IMG/VR virus record: IMGVR_UViG_3300033076_000783
Strand: one strand, 5' to 3'
From: a virus
DNA: 64,000 nucleotides
The position numbers and the translations under genes are program-made. Of the stretch, positions 13,475-30,472 are shown one piece after another. The notes beneath the pieces are model-generated. The model saw nothing but the letters and a program-made list of their open reading frames with translations, made no database searches and had not been told where the DNA came from. The number at the start of each line of letters is the position of its first letter. Positions within the stretch are counted from its first letter, which is position 1.

Positions 13475-13476
13475 TT

Positions 13477-14839: not shown

Positions 14840-14925
14840 GTTTAGAACAAAGGTTGTCTTAAAAGGGTGGGAGTTTCTCTCACCTTTTTTTTATGTCTGA
14901 AGATACCGTTAGATCAACAACAGGT

Positions 14926-14966
14926 GGAATTATGAACGGCCCAAGCCACTCATTATCCTACCTGTG
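14926..14966. repeat. Intergenic palindrome family, copy I
   Basis: GGAATTATGAACGGCCCAAGCCACTCATTATCC. Confidence 0.65.
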
Positions 14967-15194
14967 ATCAGGATCCGGGCTTGAAAAAAAAATTAAATAA
15001 TATTTGGTGAAATGAAAATTGTTTTATAATATTGTATCAGAAAATAACTTTAAAGTTGTTTGACACCAAAACCCTTGAAAACACACCAAAATAAAGGGAA
15101 TAAAAAAAAATTAAAAAAATATTGAAAAAAATTTGGTGGAAAGAAAAAAACATTATATCTTTGTATCAACAAAACGGAATTATTATTAACAACC

Positions 15195-15218
15195 AAAACG
15201 GGGACAGGTAACTGAACA
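15195..15218 (+). promoter_or_regulatory. Conserved 24-nt 5'-leader element AAAACGGGGACAGGTAACTGAACA (copy 1)
   Basis: Exact duplicate at 21080-21103, each placed 10-12 nt upstream of an ATG. Confidence 0.5.
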
Positions 15219-15228
15219 AAAACTTACT

Positions 15229-15975
15229 ATGAACAAGATAATGTCAGGTAAAAAAGTCGGAGAAATTTTTGAAACAAAAGATTATTCAATCTTCAAGTTT
15301 CGTAATGACAATCGTGTGATTGATAACAATCACGTTAAGAAACTTTCTCGTAAGATGAAAGAGAAAGGTTGGTTATCAACTTCAATCGTTACCTTAAATG
15401 GTAGTGGTGATGTAATTGACGGACAACACAGAGTTAAAGCCGCTATGGCGGTAGGTTGTCCAATTCGTTACAAAGTTACTCGTGGAGCGGGTACTGATGA
15501 AATGACCGAAATGAATACTTTACAAAAAAATTGGAGTCCATTTGACCACCTACATAAATTTGTGGAGAGAGGAAATTCAAACTACATTACATTTGATAAA
15601 TTCGTTAAGGATTATCCAATGTTTAAGTACACTGAAATTTCAATGTTGTTGAATAACAATATGACCACAATTAAGAGAGATAGTTTTGAAAGTGGTAACT
15701 ATGTTGTTAAGAATGACAAAGTAGGTCGTGAGTGGGCGAATTACATATTAGAGTTGAAACCATACTTTGAGAAGTATTACAATAAGTCAATCTTCGTGAG
15801 AGGTTTCATCAAAGTAATATCTTCTAAACCCGAGTTCGTGTTTGAGGAGTTCTTACACAAAGTGAAGTTAAGACCAAATATGTTAGTACCTTGTGGAACG
15901 GTGGAACAATATGTTCAAATGATTGAGGACATTTACAACTATCGTAGAGGTGAAAAGGTTAATTTGAGATTTTAG
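15229..15975 (+). CDS. DGQHR-domain protein (DndB-like, ParB/Srx nuclease superfamily)
   Basis: VIDGQHRVKAAMAVG motif; 248 aa. Confidence 0.5.
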   Translation: MNKIMSGKKVGEIFETKDYSIFKFRNDNRVIDNNHVKKLSRKMKEKGWLSTSIVTLNGSGDVIDGQHRVKAAMAVGCPIRYKVTRGAGTDEMTEMNTLQKNWSPFDHLHKFVERGNSNYITFDKFVKDYPMFKYTEISMLLNNNMTTIKRDSFESGNYVVKNDKVGREWANYILELKPYFEKYYNKSIFVRGFIKVISSKPEFVFEEFLHKVKLRPNMLVPCGTVEQYVQMIEDIYNYRRGEKVNLRF

Positions 15976-16003
15976 GATTTTGGTTGGTTAGTAAATAAGA
16001 ATC

Positions 16004-16031
16004 GGGGGACAGAAATGTTCCCCTTTTTTTA
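16004..16031 (+). terminator. Intrinsic terminator
   Basis: GGGGGACAgaaaTGTTCCCC+TTTTTTT. Confidence 0.6.
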
Positions 16032-16068
16032 TGTATTACAAGAAGGTTCGAGCTCAGGAAGGTATCCG

Positions 16069-16093
16069 AATAATGAATGGCCCACGGTTTTGT
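16069..16093. repeat. Intergenic palindrome family, half-copy J
   Basis: GAATAATGAATGGCCCACGG only. Confidence 0.5.
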
Positions 16094-16222
16094 TTAGTAT
16101 TATATTGGTTTAATCATGTTTTGTTTAAACTTTCATAAAAAAGATTGCACAAATTAAATATTTTTATTGTTTATTCGATTTTTTGTATTACTTTTGCAGT
16201 CGAAATCAAACTACACAATTTT

Positions 16223-16462
16223 ATGGAAACTGATAGTAGAAACAAGGCGGATAATATCAACCTTGTGGATAAGTCAAAAAAAGTGTTTGTTAGAATCCAA
16301 TTAAGTAACAATCGTAAGTATTGGGAAAAATGGATATCTAAAGACAAAAAAGATTGGGAGTTGGACGGCAAGCTGAAGAGTCTCGAAGATGTGTTAAAGT
16401 CACAACAAGATGTTATAGATAGTAACTATAATAATCTCTTCAACTTATTAGTTAGGAAATAG
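16223..16462 (+). CDS. hypothetical protein
   Basis: Track ORF starts at 16145. A TACTTTTG -7-like box at about 16190 favours the METDSRNK start at 16223. Confidence 0.35.
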   Translation: METDSRNKADNINLVDKSKKVFVRIQLSNNRKYWEKWISKDKKDWELDGKLKSLEDVLKSQQDVIDSNYNNLFNLLVRK

Positions 16463-16525
16463 TTCCATTTTAATATTTGTTTTGTTAGAGTAAGGGTGTT
16501 AGTAAGTTTTGTTCAATCCCCCAAA

Positions 16526-16552
16526 CCCCACGAGAAATTGTGGGGTTTTTTT
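16526..16552 (+). terminator. Intrinsic terminator
   Basis: CCCCACgagaaattGTGGGG+TTTTTTT. Confidence 0.6.
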
Positions 16553-16565
16553 ATGTCCACAGATT

Positions 16566-16640
16566 TTCCTGCAGATCATGCTGCACATTATGAATGGCTC
16601 GAGGCCGTTCATTATTCCCTGGCAGCTGCAGATCAGATCA
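16566..16640. repeat. Intergenic palindrome family, copy K (perfect 30-bp core)
   Basis: CATTATGAATGGCTCGAGGCCGTTCATTATT flanked by CTGCAGATCA on both sides. Confidence 0.8.
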
Positions 16641-16732
16641 CGGAGAAAAAATAATTTATATTTCTTGAAAATAATTTTGGATTATATAAAATATTGTTTT
16701 ATCTTTGTAGTGTAACAAAACAATAATACATT

Positions 16733-17578
16733 ATGGAAAGAATTAAAGAAGTACTGAACACAACTGGTTTAAACTGGAATGTTCGCAGTGAAGAATTAAC
16801 TACTGAAAGTGGAATCATTTTAAGTGGTTACAAAGCAATTGTTCGTGATGACACTAATACTGCATTATCAGTAATGAGTGACACGTATGAACCGTTTCAA
16901 AATTATGACTTGGTCGAGTTGCTAGACAAGGTGTCAAATATGACAGGCTTGGAAGTAACAAGAGGTGGGACATTTAAAGATGGTGCTCGCGTGTATGTAC
17001 AATTAAAATCGGATAACCTTAAGTTGGGTGACGATAGAATCGAGGGATATTTGACTGGCATCAATTCATTCGATGGTTCAACGAGTTTAGCATTCGGACC
17101 TAGTAACATTACAATCAGTTGTCAAAATTCATTCTTCTCAGCATTTAGAGAAATGAAAACAAAAATTCGTCACACCAAAAACATGATGATTAAAGTGGAC
17201 GAAGTATGTAGAAGTTTAGAGAATGCATTAGTGGAAGAAAAGAAAATGTTTGATAGTATCGTTCAATTAAGTGAAATCCGTTATGATGATGTAATGAAGG
17301 ATAATGTTATTCGTAAGTTATTCGACATTAAGAAAGATGTGGATTTAAAAGATGTTGATTCTATTCATACGACTACACGAAATAGACTTAGTAGATTTTA
17401 TGTTGACCTTAACGGAGAGTTGCAACAAAAGGGAGATAATATGTGGGGTTTATTTAGTGGAGTAACAAAGTACACCACACATTCATTGAGTAAAGGCAAT
17501 AGTCTTGAAACTAAAATGATGGGGACTTATGGCAAGAGAGAAAGAGAAATCTTTAGTGATATGTTAGAGTTAGTGTAA
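16733..17578 (+). CDS. DUF932 / phage-plasmid-like protein (TIGR03299-like)
   Basis: GLNWNV, RDDTNTALSVMSDTYEPFQN, GARVYVQLK and SFDGSTS blocks resemble the DUF932 family. Confidence 0.5.
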   Translation: MERIKEVLNTTGLNWNVRSEELTTESGIILSGYKAIVRDDTNTALSVMSDTYEPFQNYDLVELLDKVSNMTGLEVTRGGTFKDGARVYVQLKSDNLKLGDDRIEGYLTGINSFDGSTSLAFGPSNITISCQNSFFSAFREMKTKIRHTKNMMIKVDEVCRSLENALVEEKKMFDSIVQLSEIRYDDVMKDNVIRKLFDIKKDVDLKDVDSIHTTTRNRLSRFYVDLNGELQQKGDNMWGLFSGVTKYTTHSLSKGNSLETKMMGTYGKREREIFSDMLELV

Positions 17579-17667
17579 TACACCAATATCCATTAGAGTT
17601 AATAACCCCGATGTTTTTACATTGGGGTTTTTTAATGCTTGCAATTTTGGTTGCTGTTGCACATGCG

Positions 17668-17715
17668 CTGAATTATGAACGGCTCAACACGTATTACGAG
17701 CCACTCATTATCCTG
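17668..17715. repeat. Intergenic palindrome family, copy L (GTATTAC loop insert)
   Basis: CTGAATTATGAACGGCTCaacacgtattacGAGCCACTCATTATCCTG. Confidence 0.7.
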
Positions 17716-17773
17716 ACTGGTCCATGCCTGGATCAGGGCTAAAAAAATAATTTGAAAAAAAAGTAAATAAAAT

Positions 17774-17804
17774 TTGGTGGAATGATTTTTTTGTTATATC
17801 TTTG
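17774..17804 (+). promoter_or_regulatory. Bacteroidetes-type promoter
   Basis: TTTGGTGG ...19 nt... TATCTTTG. Confidence 0.55.
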
Positions 17805-17825
17805 TATCAACAAAAACAAATTAAT

Positions 17826-18083
17826 ATGATTAAGAAAACAAAACACACTCTGTTGTTAGGTGAGGGAGTTCACCAACACACACTCTATGGTAAGTTCGCA
17901 ATCGGTGATGGTACTGATTTTGCTGAACTTGAAGTTACGGAAGAAAGTCTATTAAAACACGAACACCCTAACGGAAATTTTGGTGAACACCAAACATTGA
18001 AGATTGAGAAGGGTGATTGGGTTATGGGTAGACAAGTTGAGTTCAACCCAATGGATAGTAAGATAACAAGAGTTTGGGACTAA
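17826..18083 (+). CDS. hypothetical protein
   Basis: Start adjusted to MIKKTKH, downstream of the promoter. Confidence 0.45.
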   Translation: MIKKTKHTLLLGEGVHQHTLYGKFAIGDGTDFAELEVTEESLLKHEHPNGNFGEHQTLKIEKGDWVMGRQVEFNPMDSKITRVWD

Positions 18084-18098
18084 TTAAAATTTAGCAAA

Positions 18099-18503
18099 AT
18101 GGCAAATCCTTTAATACATTCAAAATCGTCTGTTAAAAGATGGGGTGGTAAGGTAGAAGATTATCTACCAATACACGAACTGATTGATAGCCCAAAGGCT
18201 ACAATGAATAATAATTCTGCGAGATTGATGACACACAATACTTGGTTCGCATATACTATTGTACCGAAGATATTTGGTTACAACATTACTAATAGTGATG
18301 GTAAAAGTGTAGACACGACAGATATTGCGATGTTACATATTGCGGAAGATTTTAGAATGAAGTTCGTTCCAACACCACAGGATTACTTGAAACATTTACA
18401 AGTACAACCCTGGATGAATAATGGAGTAAAGGAACTTGATACCGAAGAAGGAAAACTTATTGTAAAACAATTAAACGAAAAATTACATTATGAGCAAGTC
18501 TAA
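18099..18503 (+). CDS. hypothetical protein
   Basis: 134-aa ORF. Confidence 0.45.
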   Translation: MANPLIHSKSSVKRWGGKVEDYLPIHELIDSPKATMNNNSARLMTHNTWFAYTIVPKIFGYNITNSDGKSVDTTDIAMLHIAEDFRMKFVPTPQDYLKHLQVQPWMNNGVKELDTEEGKLIVKQLNEKLHYEQV

Positions 18504-19146
18504 TATAATCCAATTATGGAAAGAAAATAATGTTAGAGATGTTGTATTAACATTCTCTGCGGGTGGCGACTCTATGGGTGATATGGAGTGGGCAATCTAT
18601 AACAAAGACAATGAAACTATTGATTGTCAAGAGTTGGAAGTTTATTTTGAGAGTGAGGTATTCAAAGAGGTAGAGTTCTACGAAGTATCTGATGGTCAGT
18701 ATATGGGTGAGTTTGGTGAGGTAACGATTACACTTGAAGAAGATGAGGACGAAGAAGATGGTGGTATTTTTGTGTATGACAAAGAATCTCAATCGGAGTA
18801 TGAAGAAAGTTTCTTTGAAACCGCCACTTTGGAATTGTCTGATACTGAACTTGTATTACTTGAAACCAAAATTGACAATATCAATGGTGGTGGTTGGGAT
18901 AATGAGGGTAACATAAATTACAAAGATGATTGTGTTATTACCGACGAGGAAGATGAAGTATTACAATCATTGGTAGAAAAGATTAAATCCGTTGCCGACA
19001 ATCACGAGTTTGAATTTGCTGAGGGTGATGAACAAGATGAAAGTCGTACTTATGATACTGGTGATAATGGTGAGGGTTGTGAGATTGATGGTAACGTATT
19101 ACAAATACAAGTTTCCGCAAGGTTCTATATTGTTAAATCCGAATAA
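18490..19146 (+). CDS. hypothetical highly acidic protein (DNA-mimic candidate)
   Basis: 218 aa with long D/E runs (EEDEDEEDGG, TDEEDEV, AEGDEQDESRTYDTGDNGEG). Confidence 0.5.
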   Translation: MSKSNIIQLWKENNVRDVVLTFSAGGDSMGDMEWAIYNKDNETIDCQELEVYFESEVFKEVEFYEVSDGQYMGEFGEVTITLEEDEDEEDGGIFVYDKESQSEYEESFFETATLELSDTELVLLETKIDNINGGGWDNEGNINYKDDCVITDEEDEVLQSLVEKIKSVADNHEFEFAEGDEQDESRTYDTGDNGEGCEIDGNVLQIQVSARFYIVKSE

Positions 19147-19156
19147 ATAAAAGAAA

Positions 19157-19846
19157 ATGAAAATCATAATCAATAATACTGAATTTGAATACAACATTGG
19201 TTGTAAAATTATTAAAGCGAGAGATGGTGAAGATTGTCCTAAATGGTTTAATCAACCAGATATTTGGGACGACATTGAACCGATAACTTTCAAAGACATC
19301 GCAACACAGATTACTAATCTTGAACAAAGAAGAATTGCGATAAACGCATTGGGTTTAGAAAACTTGGTGAAGGAAGTTAATCCAAAAATGATTGGCTCAG
19401 AAACAATCAGTAAGACCACTACGTTTGTTACACCAGAAGGTGAGTTGGTTACACATAACTTTAACGACACTTATAATTTATTTCAAGTTAGTGCCGAATC
19501 ACTTGGATTACAGAATAGTTGGAATAACACGAACTACTACTACATTCAATGTAAAGACACATCAACGGATAGAGAGTATTTGATTTGGGTAGATGCGTTT
19601 GAAGTGTATAGAACTAATGATGAAAATGTGAGATGGCGTTCAAGTTCTGAAAACTATGGTGAGAAGATAAATCCTATTCAGGCGATTGCTTGGACTTTCC
19701 AAACGACTATTGAGAAAGGTGGTATTGAAAAGATTGTGAGGCAAGGTGATTGTATTCTACTTAAAAAGAATAGTACCGCTAAAATCGGAAGTCAAAGACA
19801 CCTTACTGAAAAAGAGTATAGAGAGTTATTGGTATTAGAAAGTTAA
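19157..19846 (+). CDS. hypothetical protein
   Basis: 229-aa ORF. Confidence 0.5.
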   Translation: MKIIINNTEFEYNIGCKIIKARDGEDCPKWFNQPDIWDDIEPITFKDIATQITNLEQRRIAINALGLENLVKEVNPKMIGSETISKTTTFVTPEGELVTHNFNDTYNLFQVSAESLGLQNSWNNTNYYYIQCKDTSTDREYLIWVDAFEVYRTNDENVRWRSSSENYGEKINPIQAIAWTFQTTIEKGGIEKIVRQGDCILLKKNSTAKIGSQRHLTEKEYRELLVLES

Positions 19847-19869
19847 TAGTGTGTTTTGTTCCCCTAAAG

Positions 19870-19896
19870 CCCTATCAGAAATGATAGGGTTTTTTT
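19870..19896 (+). terminator. Intrinsic terminator
   Basis: CCCTATCagaaatGATAGGG+TTTTTTT. Confidence 0.6.
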
Positions 19897-19928
19897 ATGT
19901 CCACAGATTTCCCGTCTTCTAGAATCTG

Positions 19929-20075
19929 AAATATGAATGGCTCAGGCCGTTCATTTTCACACAGCATGATCTGCGCATGATCTGCTAAAAATTGCGCAGA
20001 TCTTCGCGCTGATCACAGGGACGATTATGACTGGCTCGAGGCCGTTCATTATGTTCCGACGCCGGCAGATCAGAT
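19929..20075. repeat. Intergenic palindrome family, compound copy M (two cores around a GATCTGCGCA...TGCGCAGATC palindrome)
   Basis: CTGAAATATGAATGGCTCAGGCCGTTCATTTTC, then CATGATCTGCGCATGATCTGC...GCGCAGATCTTCGCGCTGATCAC, then GATTATGACTGGCTCGAGGCCGTTCATTATG. Confidence 0.75.
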
Positions 20076-20168
20076 CATGAAAAAATATTTTAAAAAAAGT
20101 TTAAAAAATATTTGGTAAAATGATATAAGTGTTATATCTTTGTATCGAACAAATAAAATAACACTATT

Positions 20169-20927
20169 ATGATTTACACAAACAAAGCAACCGCAAAAAG
20201 ATTAACAGGTATTAACTACTTAGGATCCGTTAATCTAACGACCAAACATCAGAAGGCGTACAAGTACGATGAGTTAACCTACAGTTTGTACCTGGCACCT
20301 GCAAAAATGAGTGGCTACGAAGTTTGTCCCATGAGAACAAAAGAATGTACAAAGTTATGTTTGAATGAATCGGGGATGAACACCATGAACATGAACGGTG
20401 ACAAAATTAATCAGTCACGTATAAAGAAAACTAAATTGTTTTTCGAACACCGTGAATTCTTTGTCAATTGGTTAATCGATGAAATTTATTCAGCTAAACT
20501 TAAGGCAGAAAAATTAGGATACCAATTCAGTGTTCGTCTGAATAATACATCAGATATTCCCCCGACATTATTTAGTGTGAACTATAAAGGAGAACAAAGA
20601 AACATCCTTGAAATATTTCCAATGGTTCAATTCTACGATTACACAAAAGTGTATAACAGAATCGAGTTAACAAAGAAGTATAAAAACTACGATTTAACAT
20701 TTAGTTACAGTGGCGAGAACTTAGACCATTGCCACCAAGCATTGAATAACAATGTGAGAGTTGCCGTTGTATTCAAGAAACTACCTACAGAGTTTTGGGG
20801 TCGTAAAGTTATCGATGGTGATGCATATGACATGAGATACAAAGATGATAAGGATGTTATTGTAGGTTTGAAGTTCAAACGTGTGAGAAACAAATTAGCA
20901 AGTACAAGTAAGTTTGTAATACAGTAA
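20169..20927 (+). CDS. hypothetical protein
   Basis: 252-aa ORF after a TTTGG...TATCTTTG promoter. Confidence 0.5.
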   Translation: MIYTNKATAKRLTGINYLGSVNLTTKHQKAYKYDELTYSLYLAPAKMSGYEVCPMRTKECTKLCLNESGMNTMNMNGDKINQSRIKKTKLFFEHREFFVNWLIDEIYSAKLKAEKLGYQFSVRLNNTSDIPPTLFSVNYKGEQRNILEIFPMVQFYDYTKVYNRIELTKKYKNYDLTFSYSGENLDHCHQALNNNVRVAVVFKKLPTEFWGRKVIDGDAYDMRYKDDKDVIVGLKFKRVRNKLASTSKFVIQ

Positions 20928-20928
20928 G

Positions 20929-21000
20929 ATCACGGGACGGTCACGAATATGACCGGCTCATGTATTACGGGCCGGTCATTTTTAACAGTGTGATCAGATC
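20929..21000. repeat. Intergenic palindrome family, variant copy N (ATGACCGGC core)
   Basis: GATCACGGGACGGTCACGAATATGACCGGCTCatgtattacGGGCCGGTCATTTTTAACAGTGTGATC; a near-perfect 70-bp palindrome. Confidence 0.7.
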
Positions 21001-21079
21001 CCTGAAAAAAATAAAAAAACTTTGAGAAAAATTTGGTGGAAGAATATAAATGTTATATCTTTGTACTGAACAAAACTTA

Positions 21080-21103
21080 AAAACGGGGACAGGTAACTGA
21101 ACA
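21080..21103 (+). promoter_or_regulatory. Conserved 24-nt 5'-leader element AAAACGGGGACAGGTAACTGAACA (copy 2)
   Basis: Identical to 15195-15218. Confidence 0.5.
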
Positions 21104-21112
21104 CTAAACACT

Positions 21113-21661
21113 ATGGGACTAGATATGTATTTGTCTAAAAAGACGTATGTTAAACGTTGGTCACACCAACAAAAGAAAGACCAATTTACTGTAACAGTTA
21201 AAAGAGGGTCAAAGAAGTTTGATAAGATTAACCCTGAACGTGTGTCATACATTGTTGAGGAAGTTATGTATTGGAGAAAGGCGAATCAAATTCATGGTTG
21301 GTTCGTGGATAACACAGAGGAAATCTCGGATAACGTGAAGTACTATGTTACTCATGAAGATTTGGTTAACTTGGTTGACACGTGTAAGAAGGTGGTCGAA
21401 ATTCTAAACAACACTCCTACTAAAAAGAAACAGGTGTGTGTGGGTTGGAAGAATGGTGAGGAGTGGTACGAGGATATAGATGTGTATGACAACGTGGATG
21501 AGGTTATGAAAATACTTCCTCCTACACGTGGATGTTTCTTTGGTTCGGATGAAATTGATAAATGGTACAAGGAAGAACTTGAAAACACTATCGAAGTTCT
21601 AACAAAGGAACTTGAAATTAGTGACAAGTACGATGAGTACGAGTACTACGCCTCATGGTAA
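21113..21661 (+). CDS. hypothetical protein
   Basis: 182-aa ORF. Confidence 0.5.
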   Translation: MGLDMYLSKKTYVKRWSHQQKKDQFTVTVKRGSKKFDKINPERVSYIVEEVMYWRKANQIHGWFVDNTEEISDNVKYYVTHEDLVNLVDTCKKVVEILNNTPTKKKQVCVGWKNGEEWYEDIDVYDNVDEVMKILPPTRGCFFGSDEIDKWYKEELENTIEVLTKELEISDKYDEYEYYASW

Positions 21662-21666
21662 ATCAT

Positions 21667-21691
21667 ATGGGGGAGAAATCCCCCAATTTTT
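21667..21691 (+). terminator. Intrinsic terminator
   Basis: GGGGGAgaaaTCCCCC+AATTTTT. Confidence 0.55.
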
Positions 21692-21705
21692 AAACTTCAA
21701 AATTA

Positions 21706-22005
21706 ATGATCATGGAATCAAGATTATCACTGGCCTTTAAGGACCTTAGAAAACATGGATATTTCGCTCGTCAAAACTTTATGTGTTGTCAATCATGTGG
21801 ATGGGCGGCTGTACCCGAGGGTAAAGAAGAAAAAGTAGTATTCTTTCACAATCAGGATAACGAAGAAAGAAAGAGAGGGTTACCACTTTATTTAGCGTGG
21901 AGTGGAGATGGTGAGATTATTAAATCTGTCTTTGAACACCACGGAATAGATGTGGAGTGGAATGGTAGTGAGTCCACAAGAATACGAGTATCGAATTATG
22001 TATAA
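21706..22005 (+). CDS. hypothetical protein
   Basis: 99-aa ORF with Cys cluster (CCQSCGW). Confidence 0.4.
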   Translation: MIMESRLSLAFKDLRKHGYFARQNFMCCQSCGWAAVPEGKEEKVVFFHNQDNEERKRGLPLYLAWSGDGEIIKSVFEHHGIDVEWNGSESTRIRVSNYV

Positions 22006-22061
22006 AATAATAACAGGGATATCGTTTGGTAAAATGGTATCCTTGTTTTAACTTTGCAAAA

Positions 22062-22448
22062 ATGAAGAGCATTAAAGTTAGATTCAATCTTGGGAGAGGT
22101 AAGAACTATATGAAGTGGAAGGTTATGTATCCTGACAAACCATCCGAGTACTTGGACCCGAGTCAGGTTCAATTGGTTATGACCGACTGTAGACTCAGGA
22201 ACAACAGGAGGACCGCAGAGAAGATTATGAGTGGCCAACACAAGACAGTGTGTGCGTGGGTTCTTTGTGAATCGATAGAATTAAAAACAGATGCGTATTA
22301 CACGGTCGACGATATGGTACCTCTGAAGTATAATCCAAGAGTTACCCCCAATTGGGTGTATGAAGGAACTCGTGGTCCCATGAATGTGGACAACATATAC
22401 TTCAGGTCAGTGGTATCTGATGGAAAGAAATTATTTTGTAAATTATAA
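22062..22448 (+). CDS. hypothetical protein
   Basis: Start adjusted to MKSIKV, downstream of the TTTGG...TAACTTTG promoter at about 22024-22058. Confidence 0.45.
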   Translation: MKSIKVRFNLGRGKNYMKWKVMYPDKPSEYLDPSQVQLVMTDCRLRNNRRTAEKIMSGQHKTVCAWVLCESIELKTDAYYTVDDMVPLKYNPRVTPNWVYEGTRGPMNVDNIYFRSVVSDGKKLFCKL

Positions 22449-22461
22449 AAACCAAATAAAC

Positions 22462-22944
22462 ATGGGTAGAGTGAACAAGTTGACAGAAGGGGTATTCACG
22501 GAGTTAGTGGGTACATCAACACAAATCAGTAAGTATGATGAATTCATCAACAACATCGGTGCGAAACCATCTAAGGAGTTGAAGTCTCTGAAGACGTCAT
22601 ATGTGGATGTAATCAACAAGAATAAGGAGATGTTCCGCAAATTAGCAATGACAGAGGAGGTGATCATGCAGATCAGATCAAGGGACGAGATTATGACCGG
22701 CTCAACTGATGATATCAAATTGTCATTGGTGCGTGAATATCTCTACGCACGTTTCCCGTTCTATAGAAAAGGGATGACCACTAAGGACATCAGGGTGATT
22801 GTGGACAAGTCAGAATTCTGGGGTGAGGATTTAAATATCCTAATCAAGAACAAGGACTTCATGACAAAGGCGAAAGAGAAGTTGTCTCAGGCGATGAGTG
22901 TGGAGATTAACAACAATCTACACGAACTCAAGAAGATCGGATGA
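22462..22944 (+). CDS. hypothetical protein
   Basis: Start adjusted to the internal MGRVNKL to avoid a 65-nt overlap. Confidence 0.45.
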   Translation: MGRVNKLTEGVFTELVGTSTQISKYDEFINNIGAKPSKELKSLKTSYVDVINKNKEMFRKLAMTEEVIMQIRSRDEIMTGSTDDIKLSLVREYLYARFPFYRKGMTTKDIRVIVDKSEFWGEDLNILIKNKDFMTKAKEKLSQAMSVEINNNLHELKKIG

Positions 22945-23032
22945 TCTACCTGTCGTGATTATGACTGGCCTTAAAAAAAATATCTCAAAAAAAATTTGGT
23001 ATATTCCAAAAAATCATTAAATTTACATCGTT

Positions 23033-23338
23033 ATGAGTTTAAGTAAGGAAGTATTGAGATTACGTGACACACTTCACTGTAATATTGTTCAGGAGGCAAC
23101 AGTTAGAAATTGTCTTAATGAAAAGGAATCAGGTGTTTTAAATCTGTTTGAACCCATAGAACTTCGTAACCACATTGTCGACGGTGTATGTTGTAATACA
23201 GGTTTATTACTATACGGTGAGGATAAGATAATTCCTTACAGGTTATTAACGTTGGAGGACCTCGCTGTAATACACAGACAGGTGGTGGAGTTGAAGTCAT
23301 ATGAAGTAGTCATCGATAAAACCCCACAATATGCATAA
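23033..23338 (+). CDS. hypothetical protein
   Basis: 101-aa ORF. Confidence 0.4.
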   Translation: MSLSKEVLRLRDTLHCNIVQEATVRNCLNEKESGVLNLFEPIELRNHIVDGVCCNTGLLLYGEDKIIPYRLLTLEDLAVIHRQVVELKSYEVVIDKTPQYA

Positions 23339-23522
23339 CGATTTATATATTAAGATTTGGGCCTCACAGAAGATTAGTGAGCTTGCCAGGGAATTCGAGG
23401 TGTGTAATACACTCAAGGAATCCTACATCATTGAAGGTAAGGTACAGCTCCTCCACCAAATGTTGGATGAGTTCGAACTTAACAAAGTAAAAGACGATAG
23501 TGTAATCCATAAAGATTTCTAA
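23331..23522 (+). CDS. hypothetical protein
   Basis: 63-aa ORF. Confidence 0.35.
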   Translation: MHNDLYIKIWASQKISELAREFEVCNTLKESYIIEGKVQLLHQMLDEFELNKVKDDSVIHKDF

Positions 23523-23523
23523 T

Positions 23524-24099
23524 ATGAATATCATCCATCTACAGAAAGAGGTAATGGTCAGTGACCCAACCTACAGCGAACCTACGTGGTGTCAAATCAA
23601 ATTGAAGACAGTTAAACCAGGTGAATACTATTCATTCTGTAAAACCCACGACACGGGTTTTGCTGGTGTGAGGAATTCAATGTTATTAGTTGTCCATAAG
23701 GACCATATCAATGACGTCCTACAGTGGAAGAAACATCAGGGTGAAGTGGGTGTTGACTCGGGTCAAGCAGGAATCTTTTCCTATGAGACCTACAGGAAGG
23801 ATGGATTGGAGATGGAAGTTCCGACGATCGGATACGACGGTAGGAATTTTGACTGGCTCGATTTACCTGGTGAAGTTATGCCAGGTGATGATTGGTACAA
23901 GAAGATGTGTAAGTTCACTTTAGCTGAATTGTCATATGGATCATATGATAATGGTATTGTATGTAGAAGTGGATTCGGGGACGGTGGATATGAACTATTC
24001 ACGGCGTCTAAGAGTAGAAAGATCATTGCAATGGCCATTGACTTCGGTGTGGAGGATGGACCATATATTGAATTTGACTGGTATAAAGAATTAGTATAA
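23524..24099 (+). CDS. hypothetical protein
   Basis: 191-aa ORF. Confidence 0.5.
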   Translation: MNIIHLQKEVMVSDPTYSEPTWCQIKLKTVKPGEYYSFCKTHDTGFAGVRNSMLLVVHKDHINDVLQWKKHQGEVGVDSGQAGIFSYETYRKDGLEMEVPTIGYDGRNFDWLDLPGEVMPGDDWYKKMCKFTLAELSYGSYDNGIVCRSGFGDGGYELFTASKSRKIIAMAIDFGVEDGPYIEFDWYKELV

Positions 24100-24134
24100 A
24101 CTTCAGGGTCCGATCATGATCACACTGTAGAATT

Positions 24135-24344
24135 ATGACCGGCCCATTAACCTTCACAGATCCTATGAAAAAATTATTAAAGAACCTCGAGTACTATTGG
24201 GACTACGTCGTAGTATATCTCATGTGTAATCCTCATTATCTCCACAGGTACCATCTATGGATGTACAAGAAGTGGGGTGAAAGATACTGCACCAAGGAAG
24301 ATCTTATGAATCACATCGAGTCTGATCAGGATCCTGAATTATGA
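24135..24344 (+). CDS. hypothetical small protein whose start and stop codons lie inside palindrome-repeat cores
   Basis: ATG is within ATTATGACCGGCCC (24128-24151). Stop TGA is within AATTATGAGTGGCCC (24336-). Confidence 0.3.
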   Translation: MTGPLTFTDPMKKLLKNLEYYWDYVVVYLMCNPHYLHRYHLWMYKKWGERYCTKEDLMNHIESDQDPEL

Positions 24345-24404
24345 GTGGCCCACACTCACCTTCGCAGATCACCTGAACCGATTATGACCGGCCCATTACT
24401 AACA
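24336..24404. repeat. Intergenic palindrome family, two tandem half-copies
   Basis: TGAATTATGAGTGGCCCAC...CGATTATGACCGGCCCATTACTAAC. Confidence 0.55.
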
Positions 24405-24420
24405 TTTAAAACATGACCAC

Positions 24421-24840
24421 ATGTATATACAAACATTGAAACCGTCCCAATGGACAAACCTTGGATATCTTATAGTAGGTATTGTCTTATCACCATTAGC
24501 GGGGGTATCCTTATTAATCCCAATATGGAAATACATAGAGACCTACTGTACCAAGTACGAATTCTACGAGGACCGAATAATATACCGAAGAGGAGTCTTC
24601 AGAGTAGTAACCGACGAGATCCTATTATACAGGGTAAAGGCAATCAACTTAGACGAACCCTTCCTATACAGATTGGTAAGTATTGCCAACATGAACCTAA
24701 TCACCTCAGACAGGTTCGTGGGTAGTATCACCCTAAAGGCCATACCCGTGGGAATAGAATTCAGAAACATCCTAAGGGAGATGGTAGAACACAACCGTAA
24801 TATCAAAGGTGTCAAGGAATTCGACCTATATGATCTGTAG
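24421..24840 (+). CDS. bPH_2 (bacterial PH-like, YdbS/YdbT-type) membrane protein
   Basis: Two N-terminal hydrophobic helices followed by YEDRIIYRRGVFRVVTDEILLYRVKAINLDEPFLYRL, typical of bPH_2. Confidence 0.45.
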   Translation: MYIQTLKPSQWTNLGYLIVGIVLSPLAGVSLLIPIWKYIETYCTKYEFYEDRIIYRRGVFRVVTDEILLYRVKAINLDEPFLYRLVSIANMNLITSDRFVGSITLKAIPVGIEFRNILREMVEHNRNIKGVKEFDLYDL

Positions 24841-24842
24841 TT

Positions 24843-24870
24843 CAATTATGAACGGCCTGTGTATTACACC
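24843..24870. repeat. Intergenic palindrome family, half-copy with GTATTAC
   Basis: TTCAATTATGAACGGCCtgtgtattacacc. Confidence 0.5.
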
Positions 24871-24950
24871 AAAAAATATTTTACGTCAGATTTTTTTTTA
24901 CGGAAGATAAAGGTTATATTTTAATATAAACTTAATAAATAATAAAAATT

Positions 24951-25142
24951 ATGGCAACAAAAACAAACTCAGGTTACACCAACCTTGGTAACAACATCTA
25001 CCAAGTGTCAACAGGTGTAGGTAATCGTTACCGTGTACGTGTATCGATTAATGGAACTCGTTACGATGAGTACTTCACAAGTAAGACTAAGGCTATGAAG
25101 TTCCGTAAAGAACTTTACAACCGTCGTAAGGCAACAGTTTAA
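24951..25142 (+). CDS. small AP2/integrase-type DNA-binding-domain-like protein
   Basis: YRVRVSINGTRYDEYFTSKTKAMKFRKEL resembles the AP2/Arm DNA-binding fold; 63 aa. Confidence 0.3.
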   Translation: MATKTNSGYTNLGNNIYQVSTGVGNRYRVRVSINGTRYDEYFTSKTKAMKFRKELYNRRKATV

Positions 25143-25929
25143 TATACCGTTGTTTTCCACAACATTAAGGTCCGGACCAGTAAGGGGGTTCGGACCTTTT
25201 TTGTTTAACCCTTACGTGTATTACTTAAACAAACCTAATCATTAAAGACCGGCTTCGGGCCAGTCTTATTTGTATTACGAATAGTTGTTACAACAACTAA
25301 ATTATGACCGGCCCATTTACTCTATTACGGGCCTCCCCTATCGGGTCGGCCCTTCATCCCGTATTACATCCCATATGTATAACATCCTATTGCGGGGGAC
25401 CTTCGGTCCCCCTTCATCCCGTATGTATGACACCGTATATGTAAGACATAAATAGGATTATTCTAAGGGACCTTAAAAAAATCCCTAAGGGTTTTTCTAA
25501 AAACCATAGTACTATTTCTAGAACACCCTGAAGGGCCGAACGAAGTGAGGCCCGTATAATGAAATAACTAATATATATGTATATAATATAAATGTATTAC
25601 ATGTATACTGTATGACATTATAATGATATAATCTGGATATTTTTTAAAACTAAGTCGTGATTCAGACAAGGGACAATCCCCCACTAATTAACACTTTCTC
25701 CCACTTTGTTTCAAAAATATGGCTGGTGTATATTAGAACGGGAATTTTGACTTGATCTGACAAAAAGTCTATATATAAAATGATCACGATAAAATATGTC
25801 AAAAAGACATACTAATTTTATGGTGTTTTTAGGGTTAAAAACGGGAATAAATTAGGGGTGTTTTTGTGGGTAATCTGGTACCCAATAGAGTATACGGGCC
25901 TCCCTTCGGTCGGCCCTTCAGGGGAGAAT
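25143..25929. other. 790-bp noncoding island between convergent gene blocks, with UUCG-loop GC hairpins and iterated CCTTCATCCCGTAT / GTATTAC motifs
   Basis: GGGGGACCttcgGTCCCCC (perfect hairpin). GGGCCTCCCttcggTCGGCCC and GGGCCTCCCctatcGGGTCGGCCC. CCCTTCATCCCGTAT twice. AT-rich TGTAT/ATACA mirror repeats. No ORF of 60 aa or more. Confidence 0.6.
25169..25202 (+). terminator. Intrinsic terminator
   Basis: GGTCCGgaccagtaagggggttCGGACC+TTTTTT. Confidence 0.55.
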
Positions 25930-26277
25930 TTAGGATAGATTATCTATTATAATAGGTTCATCACAGTGGGGACAATCCTTTAGTACAAGTAAATTATTCA
26001 TATGAAAACTCCACTTCTCTACTTGTGGTTTTTCCATGCTGGAGAGTTTTCTGAACCCATCCTGATTATCTACTTCACCATATATGTCATAGTACTTTCC
26101 CTTATACCTTGTGATGATATGATTCCCATTTGTGTATGGTATACAACCTTTATACATCTTACTTAAAAGGAGGTGAAACTTATAACAACCTCCTTTTGTA
26201 TAGATGTGATGAATATACCTATCAGTATTCCTTAGTTCATCTATGAAGTTTAGAATATTCATATTAATCCTTCCCAA
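25930..26277 (-). CDS. hypothetical protein
   Basis: 115-aa ORF, last gene of the long minus-strand block. Confidence 0.45.
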   Translation of the reverse strand: MGRINMNILNFIDELRNTDRYIHHIYTKGGCYKFHLLLSKMYKGCIPYTNGNHIITRYKGKYYDIYGEVDNQDGFRKLSSMEKPQVEKWSFHMNNLLVLKDCPHCDEPIIIDNLS

Positions 26278-27260
26278 TAGTCCATTTCTACTTCTGATTC
26301 TCCGGGTTCAGGTTTATATCTATCCAACCATTCATTCAACTCAATTCTTTCCCTATAACCCATATCCTCCCATGAATTCCATGGAGTTTTATTATCATGT
26401 GAATACTTAAAATTATTTACCGCAATTGCAATATCTATTGCCTCATCCAATTCTTTAATATGACCATCCATTTCCTTATATTCAAAGATTTTATTTTTGG
26501 TCTCCTTTGTTTCGATAATAACTTTAAATCCACCGAAACCAATATAATCTACATATGTTCTAACCTTTTCAATATTGATTGGGGTCATTAGATAGTTTGT
26601 TTGGGTATGATATGTACGGTATTCTATTCCGTCCTCCGTCTTCTCAACATCCCATTTATACTCTTGACTCTTATTAATCGGTTTATGAAATATAATTAAA
26701 TGAGAAAATCTCTTAACGTTATGTGAACAAAGATAATCCACAAAATGTAAGAAGTTTATATCATTTCTACCACAAAAGGATTTAACATTATCCCCCACGA
26801 TTTTTTCACCACAAACAAATAACATGTCATCAAATGTCATCTCCGTTTTATATCTAATATATAATAACCTGGAATGAATTCCCGCCAACCATTTACCCGA
26901 ATTCTTTATATCCTCAATGATTAAATCCAATTCCTTGAAAACAATCTGAACAAATATCTTTGATAACACATTCGAATACTTTACCTTAAAAAATGGTCCC
27001 TCTATCCCATCTACTTTTTTAACCACGGTTGCCGTCTTTTGGTCAAAATATAACCCCTGACATGTAAAATCACCACGATTAGACGATTTATTATCTGTTT
27101 TAACCATCCTATAAAAATAGTCCAAACATATTTCCTCCGCGGTAGAAGAATCAAAAGTTTTGTGGGCAACAAATTCTTTACCATATACCTCATGCAAATC
27201 AACCGTCTTAAAAAATTCTAACGGTTTCTTTAATCCAAATATTTTTTCGGGTAGTGCCAT
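26259..27260 (-). CDS. hypothetical protein
   Basis: 333-aa ORF; no domain recognised. Confidence 0.5.
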   Translation of the reverse strand: MALPEKIFGLKKPLEFFKTVDLHEVYGKEFVAHKTFDSSTAEEICLDYFYRMVKTDNKSSNRGDFTCQGLYFDQKTATVVKKVDGIEGPFFKVKYSNVLSKIFVQIVFKELDLIIEDIKNSGKWLAGIHSRLLYIRYKTEMTFDDMLFVCGEKIVGDNVKSFCGRNDINFLHFVDYLCSHNVKRFSHLIIFHKPINKSQEYKWDVEKTEDGIEYRTYHTQTNYLMTPINIEKVRTYVDYIGFGGFKVIIETKETKNKIFEYKEMDGHIKELDEAIDIAIAVNNFKYSHDNKTPWNSWEDMGYRERIELNEWLDRYKPEPGESEVEMDYWEGLI

Positions 27261-27918: not shown

Positions 27919-28278
27919 TTATTGTTCCCTACTTAACATATACCTATGATATGTTTCCTCTATTATTACTTCGTGTAGTTGATCATCAATTGGGTCATAT
28001 GTGTTTAAATCCACACCCAAATCTATTAATACGTTTTCAAGACTAAGTCTATAATAACTTCTAATTTCACTAAACTCTGTTAACAAACCCTGACTAATAA
28101 ATTCTGTGGTTGTATTGTACACATCCAACACAATGTTGTAATGTTCGTAGTCATATCTTATTTCAAATAGTTCCTCATACCTATCATGAAGAATCCTATG
28201 ATATTCCCTTAGTAAAGTATTGTTGGAGATTAGTCTTATCTCCTCTGTTATCCCTCTGAAAAATTTGAAATTATCCAT
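27919..28278 (-). CDS. hypothetical protein
   Basis: 119-aa ORF. Confidence 0.4.
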   Translation of the reverse strand: MDNFKFFRGITEEIRLISNNTLLREYHRILHDRYEELFEIRYDYEHYNIVLDVYNTTTEFISQGLLTEFSEIRSYYRLSLENVLIDLGVDLNTYDPIDDQLHEVIIEETYHRYMLSREQ

Positions 28279-29674
28279 TTACCACCGTCGGATTCTCTTT
28301 ACCCTCTTTATACCACTTGGATGTTCTCTTATTACTTGCTTGTGTCTGAGCATCGGCCCATCTACAATTCCCTGGTTCGTAGTTACCGTCAGGATTGATT
28401 CTATCATTGGTTAAGTCCCACGATTCAGGAATCCCCATATCCTCAATGAAATTATATGGTGACTCCCTCCATCTCTCACATACTTCAATACCTCTTGCCC
28501 CATAATGTTTGTAACCTGGGTCCCTTTCATTATAACATCTATTCATCATTCCCTTCCACCTCTGATACATACGTCTTTGTTCCTCCGTCCCATGTAAATC
28601 CCAAGTCGAAGTGTGACTCTTACATCCACAAGACTTTACATAATGTAACAATATATCCTTATACCTATACGTTTCAACACTACCACAATCACATTCACAC
28701 TCCACCATCCTTTGAATATAATCCTTCCCATCTTTATCTGTGTAGTATACCTCAGACTCAACCTCCCTTACAATCTTTAAACTATGATACTTCTCCTTAT
28801 GAATCTCCTGTGATGAAAGTTTATCAATGGTTGTCTTGGTTATTAAACAACCACAATGATCAGGATTGGATTCGTGCATGAATCTTCTTAGTGTCATCTC
28901 CTCCACATGGTCACAACTATTACATTTAACCATCACATATCTTATGGTCGATAATACCCCACCATTTTTTGGATTAATCTTTGTTACCTTCTCCGTCTCT
29001 TCTAACAATACCAAATGACCTCTTGATTGTCCAATCTCAATATCAAATGAGTTTACCTCACTGGACTTCTCACGAGCGTAACAACCACAAGAGGTTGTCT
29101 TCCCACTTGTTAAATCTCCCACCCTTATTTTCTTTACAACACCACACTCACATTTACATTCCAATACTCTGGCAATTGAACCACCAGCCTTTCTTGCACC
29201 ATCCACTTCCCTAATAACTGTTAGTCTACCAAACACCTTCCCATCATATAGGATTTTTCCCTTTCTCTCACTGTTGTTTAACTTATTACATCCACACGAT
29301 TTCGAATTACCTGTTCTCAATGATACCAACGATAATTCTATTACGTTTCCACAATCACATTGTGCTCTTACCCATCTAGTAGATGCATTGAAAGTATTCC
29401 TTCTTCTTGGTAACTCCTCTAAGATGGTAAACTTATGATACCTATCACCTGGTTTAACCTCCACACTGGGTCCCTTTCTTCCTGTTTGACACCCACAAGA
29501 TTTAGTGTCCCCTCGGGAAACACATCCTATTCTTTTTTCTGTAACTTTACCACATGAACATTCGAACTCACCCATACGGGAAAATTTACCGTTGGATTCT
29601 ATTTTCGGTTCAGTCTCTTTAATGAAGGTTAACTCTCCGAAGATATCCCCCGGATTCATGATAATTTTGGCCAT
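28271..29674 (-). CDS. Cys-rich zinc-ribbon-repeat protein with C-terminal HNH-type nuclease-associated module
   Basis: Four or more repeats of C-x-C-G-x(14-18)-SCGC (for example CSCGKVTEKRIGCVSRGDTKSCGC). C-terminus MMNRCYNERDPGYKHYGARGIEVCERW...DRINPDGNYEPGNCRWA matches the phage HNH endonuclease-associated signature. Confidence 0.55.
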   Translation of the reverse strand: MAKIIMNPGDIFGELTFIKETEPKIESNGKFSRMGEFECSCGKVTEKRIGCVSRGDTKSCGCQTGRKGPSVEVKPGDRYHKFTILEELPRRRNTFNASTRWVRAQCDCGNVIELSLVSLRTGNSKSCGCNKLNNSERKGKILYDGKVFGRLTVIREVDGARKAGGSIARVLECKCECGVVKKIRVGDLTSGKTTSCGCYAREKSSEVNSFDIEIGQSRGHLVLLEETEKVTKINPKNGGVLSTIRYVMVKCNSCDHVEEMTLRRFMHESNPDHCGCLITKTTIDKLSSQEIHKEKYHSLKIVREVESEVYYTDKDGKDYIQRMVECECDCGSVETYRYKDILLHYVKSCGCKSHTSTWDLHGTEEQRRMYQRWKGMMNRCYNERDPGYKHYGARGIEVCERWRESPYNFIEDMGIPESWDLTNDRINPDGNYEPGNCRWADAQTQASNKRTSKWYKEGKENPTVVNG

Positions 29675-29737: not shown

Positions 29738-30472
29738 TTATTTTTTAATCGATAATTGAATGTTAGTTATGTTAAAATGTTTTAATAGTTTGTTCACATT
29801 CTTTACCTTCACCTCATTATTATTACCCGTAAAAATAAAATGATTCTCATATGGTTTTAGTTGTGCTGGGTTGGCACTTGGATTTCTCTCCGATAACTCC
29901 TTTAAATTCTTTGTTACCCTTATCTCTTTCTCCATCACCTTGTCCCATCCAACAACATCAGCAATTAGTTTGTGGACCAACATATAAGTTTCTGTTGAAT
30001 TCTCTTGTGAAATATCCTCACCATTATGGATTAATGATAGTCTAGTCTTAGAGTTTCTAAATGTATTGATGATTTTTGCCTTATCAATATCATTAATATC
30101 GGTATCTTGTTTGATATCCTCAGTTAAATCTATCTCAGTAGTGTTGGGTAGATTTTTAATTAATTTATCTATTCGATTATATAATACTTCTTCATCGTCA
30201 ACATAAAACCATTCAGTTCTTTTCTTTTTCTTATCGTCATATACCATAACGATTCTATAATCCTCGAAACATGTGTGAAGAATGGCTTCGGTCGACGCCA
30301 TGTTATCAGTTCCAAATACTCTAACCAATAAGACATCGAACGGCATGTTGGTTGAGTTAAGTTGTTTCTCCCTAATGGAGTATTGTTTTGATTTACCTAA
30401 TTTATAATATCCTTCTAAAAATTCATTCTTGTGGTTTAGTAATCTAGCAACGTAAACGTACTGTTCATTCAT
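29738..30472 (-). CDS. T5orf172 (GIY-YIG-like) domain protein
   Basis: YYKLGKSKQYSIREKQL...AILHTCFEDYRI...EWFYV pattern of the T5orf172/MUG113 family. Confidence 0.5.
   Translation of the reverse strand: MNEQYVYVARLLNHKNEFLEGYYKLGKSKQYSIREKQLNSTNMPFDVLLVRVFGTDNMASTEAILHTCFEDYRIVMVYDDKKKKRTEWFYVDDEEVLYNRIDKLIKNLPNTTEIDLTEDIKQDTDINDIDKAKIINTFRNSKTRLSLIHNGEDISQENSTETYMLVHKLIADVVGWDKVMEKEIRVTKNLKELSERNPSANPAQLKPYENHFIFTGNNNEVKVKNVNKLLKHFNITNIQLSIKK

Follow-up and report, generated by a model that had tools for sequence, protein, structure and literature searches.

The DNA analysed here (the window) is a 64-kb stretch of the viral record IMGVR_UViG_3300033076_000783, and all positions are counted on the whole stretch. 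It is phage-like DNA with about 33 per cent G + C. The genes fall into two convergent blocks: small genes occupy the + strand over 17 kb (approx. 8.3–25.1 kb), and all genes from 25930 to 64000 lie on the − strand. The present work concerns the non-coding island of about 790 bp at the junction of these blocks, between the end of the last + gene (25142) and the facing − gene end (25930). An earlier reading of the sequence (the original prediction) had placed here an island between convergent gene blocks, free of open reading frames (ORFs) of 60 amino acids (aa) or more, and both statements hold. The largest ORF encodes 56 aa (25285–25455, TTG start) and is not kept as an ORF in the closest relative, L044.

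The elements of the island and the genes discussed below are listed in table 1. All the sequence features of the original prediction were found in the DNA, and all are far above chance. They comprise the perfect hairpin GGGGGACCTTCGGTCCCCC and the related hairpins GGGCCTCCCCTATCGGGTCGGCCC and GGGCCTCCCTTCGGTCGGCCC, the string CCCTTCATCCCGTAT, which occurs twice (25350 and 25410), the repeat core ATTATGACCGGCCC, an AT-rich stretch, and four GTATTAC sites accompanied by two GTATGAC sites, all on the + strand.

Table 1. Elements of the intergenic island and associated genes in the window.
Feature	Position	Strand	Remarks
Gene for 63-aa basic protein	24951–25142	+	last gene of the + (early-type) block
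Intrinsic terminator of the + block	25167–25205	+	12-bp hairpin, then TTTTTTGT; terminator scan and sequence
Imperfect GC hairpin	25245–25267		AAGACCGGC-TTCG-GGCCAGTCTT, then GTATTAC at 25272
Repeat core ATTATGACCGGCCC	25301–25314	+	last of 20 same-strand copies of early-block core ATTATGAMYGGCYC (9013–25314)
Unit F1	25323–25367		TATTAC - GGGCC/TC/CCC-TATC-GGG/TC/GGCCC - TTCATCCC - GTATTAC; hairpin GGGCCTCCCCTATCGGGTCGGCCC at 25329–25352
Unit F2	25390–25431		perfect 8-bp hairpin GGGGGACCTTCGGTCCCCC with TTC triloop (25394–25412), then TTCATCCCGTAT and GTATGAC
Optional block	25457–25521		direct repeats ATTATTCTAAG and ACTATTTCTAG at edges; present in L005, L039; absent from L044
Unit R (inverted)	25524–25561		strand with G·A pairs is the + strand
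AT-rich stretch	approx. 25557–25653		about 80% A + T; GTATTAC at 25594, GTATGAC at 25610; candidate DNA-unwinding element
Core	25654–25679	+	GTCGTGATTC-N10-CAATCC, 26 nt; single copy, unique in the window
Three (C/A)CAC boxes	25677–25705		10-bp phasing, +27/+37/+47 from core start; similar to weak DnaA boxes
ATCACGATAAAA (ACGAYAAAA)	25783–25794	+	complementary to core start GTCGTGAT; fixed distance from core
Short hairpin	25796–25810		ATGTC-AAAAA-GACAT, then T-rich run
Conserved TTTTTAGGG..AAAAACGGGAATAAATTAGGGGTG block	25826–25860	+
Unit F3	25891–25926		hairpin GGGCCTCCCTTCGGTCGGCCC at 25896–25916, then TTCAGGGG; 4–14 nt past the stop codon of the last − block gene
YunG-like gene	25930–26277	−
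Gene for 333-aa protein	26259–27260	−
Gene for stand-alone DnaA domain IV (DnaA-box-binding helix-turn-helix) protein, 121 aa	38206–38571	−	PF08299, E = 6.4e-18, 65 bits

A megablast search with the region 24400–26600 against 50 697 phage records returned zero matches, which points to an uncultured lineage; tblastn of the 333-aa neighbour against the same records also returned none. In IMG/VR, an initial search with one protein gave no match, and neither did a search for an exact-repeat pattern. Related contigs, recovered through homologues of the 333-aa protein and a motif scan, are 287–334 kb long, which places the window in an uncultured jumbo-phage lineage. A scan of JGI metagenomes returned mainly the L009 clade again, and matches to the HNH endonuclease in the homology search were promiscuous and uninformative. 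The promoter type of the early block, TTTG-N20-TAnnTTTG, is that of Bacteroidota.

Loci with the island are L002–L004, L005–L008, L009–L012, L013, L016, L018, L039 and L044. The ORF-free island occupies the identical convergent junction in at least seven diverged clades, in which the neighbouring 333-aa protein is 38–58% identical. The elements follow one order in all clades: a small basic-protein gene with a strong promoter, a terminator, forward hairpin units, an inverted unit, an A + T-rich stretch with GTATKAC heptamers, the core GTCGTGATTC-N10-CAATCC, phased boxes, ACGAYAAAA, a short covarying hairpin with a T-rich run, a TTTTAGGGG/GGGAATAAATTAG block, and a last hairpin unit just past the last − strand gene. 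The original prediction was to be given up if the region proved poorly conserved among relatives; since position, order and spacing are kept in at least seven clades, this objection falls. We interpret the island as a single-copy DNA control locus, conserved and acting in cis, where the early-type + block of a jumbo phage meets the − block.

The left half of the island is built of hairpin units. Hairpins followed by CCCTTCA(TCCCG/GGGG) occur four times in the 64 kb, all inside 25323–25926, and in the eight loci scanned the units are confined to the islands, which do not show the many dispersed copies of repetitive extragenic palindromes (REPs) or bacterial interspersed mosaic elements (BIMEs). 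The related hairpins consist of 5 bp, a 2 × 2 TC/TC internal loop, 2–3 bp and a TNC triloop; (G)TATTAC stands directly against the 5′ foot, and another GTATKAC comes after TTCATCCC. Covariation was analysed in an alignment of 11 distinct class-1 copies that represent seven clades. Every one of the 77 cells is paired, with no G·U pair among them; four of the seven pairs show compensatory double changes, and the four nucleotides of the 2 × 2 loop (5′-TC-3′ opposite 5′-TC-3′) are invariant. The observed covariation values were reached in 0 of 500 shuffles and collapsed in slid controls. The stem of F2 is wholly recoded among the relatives (GGGGGACC, GGGGACAC, GGGGGTCC, GGGTCCCC and others; GGGGACAC/GTGTCCCC in L044), and its flanks are unchanged. 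A second class of units has the same GG-TC-GG/CC-TC-CC module with the loop on the opposite side. The left half as a whole folds far better than shuffled sequences (z = −5.7 on the + strand and −6.5 on the − strand), and the number of units differs between clades.

The original prediction had read these hairpins as UUCG tetraloops, a classic mark of RNA stability. This is not the best register: in RNAfold, the perfect hairpin is 8 bp closed by a TTC triloop. The argument from UUCG fails further because the special features of the module sit on the complementary strand, as tandem G·A/A·G mismatches below a c-GNA-g triloop (GAA, GTA, GCA or GGA). This G·A strand is 2–4 kcal/mol more stable than the other, and G·T wobbles are found on it alone, in the reverse units of L005 and L016. 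On the − strand, unit F3 reads GGGCCGA-CCGAAGG-GAGGCCC. By hand count, the reverse complement of unit R is identical to unit F3 at 31 of 33 positions, so that R and F3 form inverted repeats on complementary strands, on either side of the AT-rich segment, core and boxes; the same layout is found in L044, L039, L005, L013 and L016. The combination of a GC hairpin and a T run, typical of intrinsic terminators, is present at 25167–25205 only; units F1, F2, R and F3 have no T run and are therefore not terminators. Hammerhead, K-turn and boxB motifs, compared by eye with the unit flanks, do not fit. The covariation argues that the hairpin units are real structured elements, whether folded as RNA, single-stranded DNA or cruciforms.

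The right half of the island is organized around the core, whose pattern is identical in L002, L009, L018, L039 and L044. In bacterial genomes, the pattern has at least 120 matches, which is no more than chance would give for its 16 specified bases (about 280 expected), and none of those listed carries ACGAYAAA at +132. Next to the core, 3–5 boxes are spaced at 10-bp steps and at conserved positions in all clades, a phased array such as an origin of replication would be expected to have. The boxes read (C/A)CAC at +27/+37/+47(/+57) in the window, L044, L002, L009 and L013, and are flipped to GTGG at +45/+55/+65, with the same footprints, in L005, L018 and L039. That three clades have them inverted on the same footprints agrees with a protein that binds duplex DNA rather than with an RNA fold. 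They can be described as weak DnaA boxes, with 3–4 mismatches and the CAC core kept; the distal box is a perfect DnaA box in L044 (TTATCCACA) and in L018 and L008 (TGTGGATAA) and one mismatch off in L005 and L002, and there is no strong box in L009 and L016.

The geometry of this segment is fixed. The distance from the core end (CAATCC/CAATAT) to ACGAYAAAA is 115 nt in six sequences and 117 nt in L016, and ACGA lies at +132 from GTCGTG in nine IMG/VR loci. When the stretch from core to ACGAYAAAA (148 nt) is aligned, eight of nine sequences (seven clades) have identical length without indels, at a mean column identity of about 60% and with most of the intervening columns variable. RNAalifold found no pairs on the + strand of the right half and one 3-bp helix (−0.4 kcal/mol) on the − strand in these nine sequences from seven clades. 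The AA/TT periodicity peaks at 9.5–10 bp, with summed power of 9.2/7.2 against a shuffle 95% level of 3.0. The segment 25555–25654 is the least stable 100-bp duplex of the 64 kb, and nearly so in L044, not in more distant clades, where the A + T content is only moderately high. The short hairpin beyond ACGAYAAAA covaries (AGTAC/GTACT in L018, L044 and L005; GACA/TGTC in L002 and L009). Taken together, the right half behaves as a fixed-geometry DNA platform, not as a folded RNA.

Several other readings of this half were rejected. A long-range helix between GTCGTGAT and ATCACGAY can be drawn in the window, L018, L002 and L009, not in L005, L013 and L016, and has no RNAalifold support. The core is not coding: by eye, the frame of the GTG ORF at 25657–25755 is interrupted or runs into a stop in L018 and L005, and in L009 it is shifted. 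No match to a dif/Xer site was seen by eye in the AT-rich stretch. The core decamer, GGGACAATCC, recurs exactly at 25969–25978, 290 nt downstream of its first copy and within the 3′ end of the YunG-like gene; no such copy was seen at the matching position in L044.

The heptamer GTATKAC is distributed very unevenly in the window. The island contains six copies on the + strand and none on the − strand, against 0.23 and 0.21 expected (26-fold enrichment; the + count was reached in 0 of 300 shuffles). The early block has 18 and 11 copies against 2.7 and 2.6 expected from shuffles, that is, 7-fold (+) and 4-fold (−) enrichment and about one copy per kilobase on the sense strand. In the 38-kb − block there are none on either strand, where 4.9 and 5.3 are expected, and 0 of 300 shuffles were as low. 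The partition is repeated in five relatives (L002, L005, L009, L013 and L016), with 0–1 sites in approximately 53 kb on the − block side, 4–10 copies per island, both strands counted, and about one per kilobase on the early side. The depletion on both strands argues for recognition of DNA. This distribution, kept across clades, suggests that early DNA is set apart from the remainder by a recognition system.

Two genes of the window may encode proteins acting on these sites. The 121-aa DnaA domain IV protein was found in a bulk Pfam scan of 53 further window ORFs; it keeps the GGRDHTT signature and is conserved in the contigs carrying L044 (73% identity) and L036 (50% identity). Weaker homologues (27–40% identity) are present in many viral contigs of 35–50 kb. 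The 63-aa basic protein has eight close homologues only, and small homologous genes lie beside the island in L002, L007, L013, L039 and L044. In its AlphaFold2 (AF2) model (pLDDT 82), four strands are combined with one helix. Arm-binding domains of integrases came first in the fold search (3rmp_C, prob 0.87, TM 0.60; 3jtz), and these matches are weak (E > 0.2). A sequence-profile search of this protein against the PDB gave only spurious gelsolin matches. The modelled arm-type/AP2-like fold makes it a candidate GTATKAC binder.

From the observed conservation, covariation, spacing, box phasing and flipping, motif statistics and protein domains we infer possible binding partners, melting, priming and origin function. 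We tentatively propose that the island is a replication-initiation region, with hairpins and terminators shielding both sides. The proposal is based on the combination, at a single-copy locus, of a phased DnaA-type array, a meltable segment and inverted stable hairpins that bracket the array. A DnaA-type helix-turn-helix protein (host DnaA, the phage domain IV protein or both), another initiator, or the two together would first occupy the boxes and the 26-nt core on one helix face, assembling into a nucleoprotein complex whose anchors lie a fixed 148 bp apart. The adjoining AT-rich segment would then melt, and the hairpin units would form on the exposed single strands or extrude as cruciforms. 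Their CCGAAGG-type tip, tandem G·A pairs and conserved flanks would serve as single-strand initiation (ssi) signals resembling ssiA and ssiB of RSF1010. Synthesis would run leftward from unit R (functional strand +) and rightward from unit F3 (functional strand −), and the small arm-type protein encoded next door would bind GTATKAC beside each hairpin.

The nearest described architecture is oriV of the IncQ plasmid RSF1010, in which iterons and an AT-rich region are combined with a pair of inverted ssi hairpins of 40 nt, one on each of the complementary strands (PMC8567376). CCGAAGG is the ‘mini-hairpin’ of ssiA, and the related mini-hairpins GCGAAAGC and GCGGAGC belong to the complementary-strand origin of phage G4 and the hairpin promoters of phage N4 (PMC13037366); hairpins of this kind are extruded from duplex DNA when supercoiling is at physiological levels (PMC4496689). 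The likeness lies in a phased repeat array adjoining an easily melted segment, in two near-identical hairpins arranged as inverted repeats on complementary strands (here R and F3), and in a hairpin of about 21 nt with a CCGAAGG tip and conserved single-stranded flanks. However, sequence similarity is limited to the CCGAAGG tip, and the hairpins of the island have an invariant tandem mismatch, GTATKAC flanks and more than two units. RSF1010 is moreover a small plasmid primed by RepB′, whereas the island belongs to a phage of about 300 kb, and no gene for a RepB′-type primase, RepC or RepA was found in the window.

With oriC-type origins the island shares low-affinity co-oriented boxes in helical phase (anchored in L044, L018, L008 and L005 by a strong box at the distal end), an AT-rich segment nearby and a phage-encoded DnaA domain IV protein. 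It differs in its period (10 bp against 11 bp), in having weak boxes only in the window, in the flipped orientation between clades and in that the phage protein is without the AAA+ domain needed for unwinding. The N4 promoters recognized by virion RNA polymerase are likewise small, extrudable GC hairpins with a 3-nt purine loop, a sheared G:A pair and conserved flanking bases. They precede early genes at the genome end, whereas the island units follow the last genes of both blocks and their transcripts would be antisense; here the early genes have host-type promoters, and no gene for a virion RNA polymerase lies in the window.

The hairpin tip is not peculiar to this lineage. The string CCTCCCTNCGGTCGG is found in many unrelated viral contigs of 34–70% G + C, on lower stems that vary in sequence and are perfectly complementary. 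Among the matches listed, 34 of 107 distinct ones have at least two further pairs and 11 of 107 at least four, against 6 of 87 and 0 of 87 for a composition-matched control pattern. Its contexts are iteron regions, the upstream regions of terminase genes and ribosome-binding sites; copies lie at L226:1784–1814, L249:4665–4695, L235:304–334 and 934–964, and L256:13714–13738. No Rfam family matches the CCTCCCTNCGGTCGG hairpin, with no match at 14 other loci that carry it, and the string was not found in the literature searched. Because it recurs on variable stems in unrelated contigs and in differing contexts, the hairpin looks like a generic, very stable module. In two of these contigs, L226 and L249, the identically tipped hairpin is found inside iteron arrays, in L249 directly after a Toprim + AAA_25 primase-helicase gene, and these two copies lend independent support to an origin.

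A number of observations weigh against an origin. Forks leaving the island would meet both convergent gene blocks head-on, and the maximum of the cumulative GC skew falls on the junction, as at a terminus, a signal confounded with gene orientation. The window array contains nothing closer than four mismatches to TTATCCACA; boxes with at most one mismatch occur near the island only at 25153 and 25865, both outside the array, and DnaA boxes are not enriched across the window (34 against 30 expected). The extreme AT-richness upstream of the core is not kept in L005, L039, L009, L013 and L016, and L002 lacks the inverted unit R. The orientation of R and F3 would equally suit an insulator acting at the RNA level and facing incoming transcripts. 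No replication genes were found beside the island in any clade, and the DnaA domain IV gene is 12.5 kb away. Finally, the tip is not diagnostic: it also overlaps ribosome-binding sites in L235 and L256, and in L220 and L251 it lies close to terminase genes. It is on account of the head-on forks, terminus-like skew, weak boxes, unconserved AT extreme, lack of adjacent replication genes and undiagnostic tip that we keep the origin proposal tentative. Of the functions offered in the original prediction, a replication site is the best supported, by inference rather than demonstration.

The organization of the early block is relevant to the other interpretations. It is made of cassettes comprising a gene, an intrinsic terminator, a long hairpin, an A-rich upstream region and a TTTG-N20-TAnnTTTG promoter. 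At least 12 copies of an 80-nt promoter cassette (A-rich, TTTGG..N20..TATCTTTG) are found between 8251 and 22056, for example at 17742–17821, each preceded by a GC-hairpin/T-run terminator (family D4). With its repeated promoter cassettes and terminators, the early block is thus a chain of near-identical transcription units. The 20 copies of ATTATGAMYGGCYC, all on the + strand, compare with 0.07 expected. In about half of them, pairing with a GRGCCRKTCATTAT farther downstream gives a long hairpin that stands between the terminator and the next promoter, often edged by GATC-rich inverted repeats, and five of these hairpins carry GTATTAC in the loop. The ATTATGAMYGGCYC repeat family is absent from all the relatives examined. 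GTATTAC resembles the nonanucleotide motif (..GTATTAC in a hairpin loop) of circular Rep-encoding single-stranded DNA (CRESS) viruses. A rolling-circle origin of the HUH-Rep type was rejected, as the GTATTAC copies of the island lie outside the stems and no Rep, HUH or Y1 domain was found in the window.

The island could instead be a boundary of the early block, in which a protein platform and hairpins insulate the convergent programmes, mark an early–late switch or act in stepwise DNA entry, in the manner of the injection-stop (iss) region of phage T5, which lies where the pre-early block of that phage ends on its inner side; we consider this unlikely. The T5 region is about 1.2 kb long, conserved and untranslated, with repeats, inverted repeats, palindromes, DnaA boxes and a fixed 52-bp spacer (bioRxiv 10.1101/866236). 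The island resembles it as a large conserved untranslated region at the edge of an early block, with nested repeats, palindromes, DnaA-type boxes and a fixed spacer. It exactly ends the 17-kb block of small genes with host-type promoters and terminators; GTATKAC is characteristic of the island and the early block, whereas both strands of the other block have been purged of it (0 against approx. 10 expected); units R and F3 turn their more stable strand toward incoming transcripts; and both a canonical terminator and a bidirectional-terminator-like element, AAAAAAATCCCTAAGGGTTTTT at 25475–25496, are present. The latter lies inside the optional block, which is missing from L044 and thus possibly a small insertion. 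However, the sequences of the island and the T5 region are unrelated, and the T5 DnaA boxes are paired 3 bp apart, an arrangement not seen in the island, where the array is phased at 10 bp. There is no sign of terminal repeats or of two-step injection in this phage, the hairpin units lack the U-runs of all its recognizable terminators, and insulation alone would leave the single-copy core and the fixed 148-bp geometry unexplained.

It is unlikely that the units act at the RNA level, transcribed within long 3′ untranslated regions of the two blocks or from internal promoters as 3′-end stabilizers, processing sites or small stable RNAs. The strong folding of the left half on both strands and the covarying stems agree with such a role, as do the G·T wobbles restricted to the G·A strand of the two reverse units, the location of F3 immediately after a stop codon, and the presence of the same tip in the mRNA leaders of L235 and L256. 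A single host-type promoter-like site (25705–25736, nine of 10 consensus positions) could drive internal transcription, but it is not conserved. Opposed to this are the absence of G·U pairs in the class-1 units, the varying number of units between clades, the right half without conserved structure, and the depletion elsewhere, on both strands, of the heptamers that flank the hairpins, which indicates DNA recognition. The Rfam check gave no family at the gathering score in the 64 kb and noise only at E ≤ 10 within 24800–26100, where a weak Histone3 stem-loop match in the optional block (25457–25521) was dismissed as noise; ARAGORN found no tRNA or transfer-messenger RNA (tmRNA) gene in the window. 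The small structured RNAs of the original prediction are thus made less likely, there being no match to Rfam, tRNA or tmRNA and no consensus fold of the right half. The hairpin units are real structured elements, as their covariation indicates, and the original prediction as a whole is supported in part.

A doubtful, if broader, possibility is an undescribed genome-partition code, in which GTATKAC, purged elsewhere and read by the 63-aa binder, would together with the hairpin units define and control an ‘early domain’ of the chromosome, distinct either physically or in time. Possible roles of such a domain are stepwise DNA entry, domain-specific silencing and domain-specific replication.

A packaging or terminus region (a pac/cos site or the edge of a terminal repeat), also offered in the original prediction, is very unlikely and found no specific support. 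A single-copy non-coding locus with phased repeats and A-tracts like those of bent DNA would suit it, the related contig L018 ends inside the island, and in L220 and L251 the same tip lies a few hundred nucleotides upstream of terminase genes. However, neither the window nor the relatives have terminase or structural genes close to the island, and the large related contigs start elsewhere, at differing positions, with no break at the island. That the island is a collection of decaying or selfish repeats (REP/BIME-like or resembling miniature inverted-repeat transposable elements), gathered in a tolerant gap and without function for the phage, is barely credible: units in both orientations as in BIMEs, the optional block with its direct-repeat edges, present or absent among relatives, and the window-specific ATTATGA repeat family would agree with it, but the units are limited to one locus per genome region examined, and order, spacing and the invariant loop persist across clades at 38–58% protein identity.

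Among 91 window ORFs scanned against Pfam, none has a Rep/HUH, primase, helicase or terminase domain. The 333-aa family has 24 homologues with many invariant D/E/K/H residues, and its AF2 model is confident (pLDDT 87, pTM 0.84); no Pfam, PHROG or PDB fold match was obtained for it, and readings as a PD-(D/E)XK nuclease or a primase were dropped, as the confident model has no PDB fold match. Farther along the − strand are an HNH endonuclease gene (phrog_374, E = 5e-77; 28271–29674) and a gene for a T5orf172/MUG113-domain protein (29738–30472). These homing-endonuclease-type genes, 2.3–4.5 kb from the island, may explain local differences in gene content between relatives.

The hairpin design described here, a tandem G·A pair below a GNA triloop, recurs on variable stems across many unrelated viral contigs. 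For jumbo phages, above all uncultured lineages with Bacteroidota-like hosts, hardly any replication origins, boundaries or other cis-acting sites have been described, and the island provides a precisely delimited candidate of about 790 bp with named sub-elements and two candidate trans-acting proteins. If it is indeed a replication origin, it would permit the construction of replicons and the estimation of the activity of these phages in metagenomes from marker frequency.

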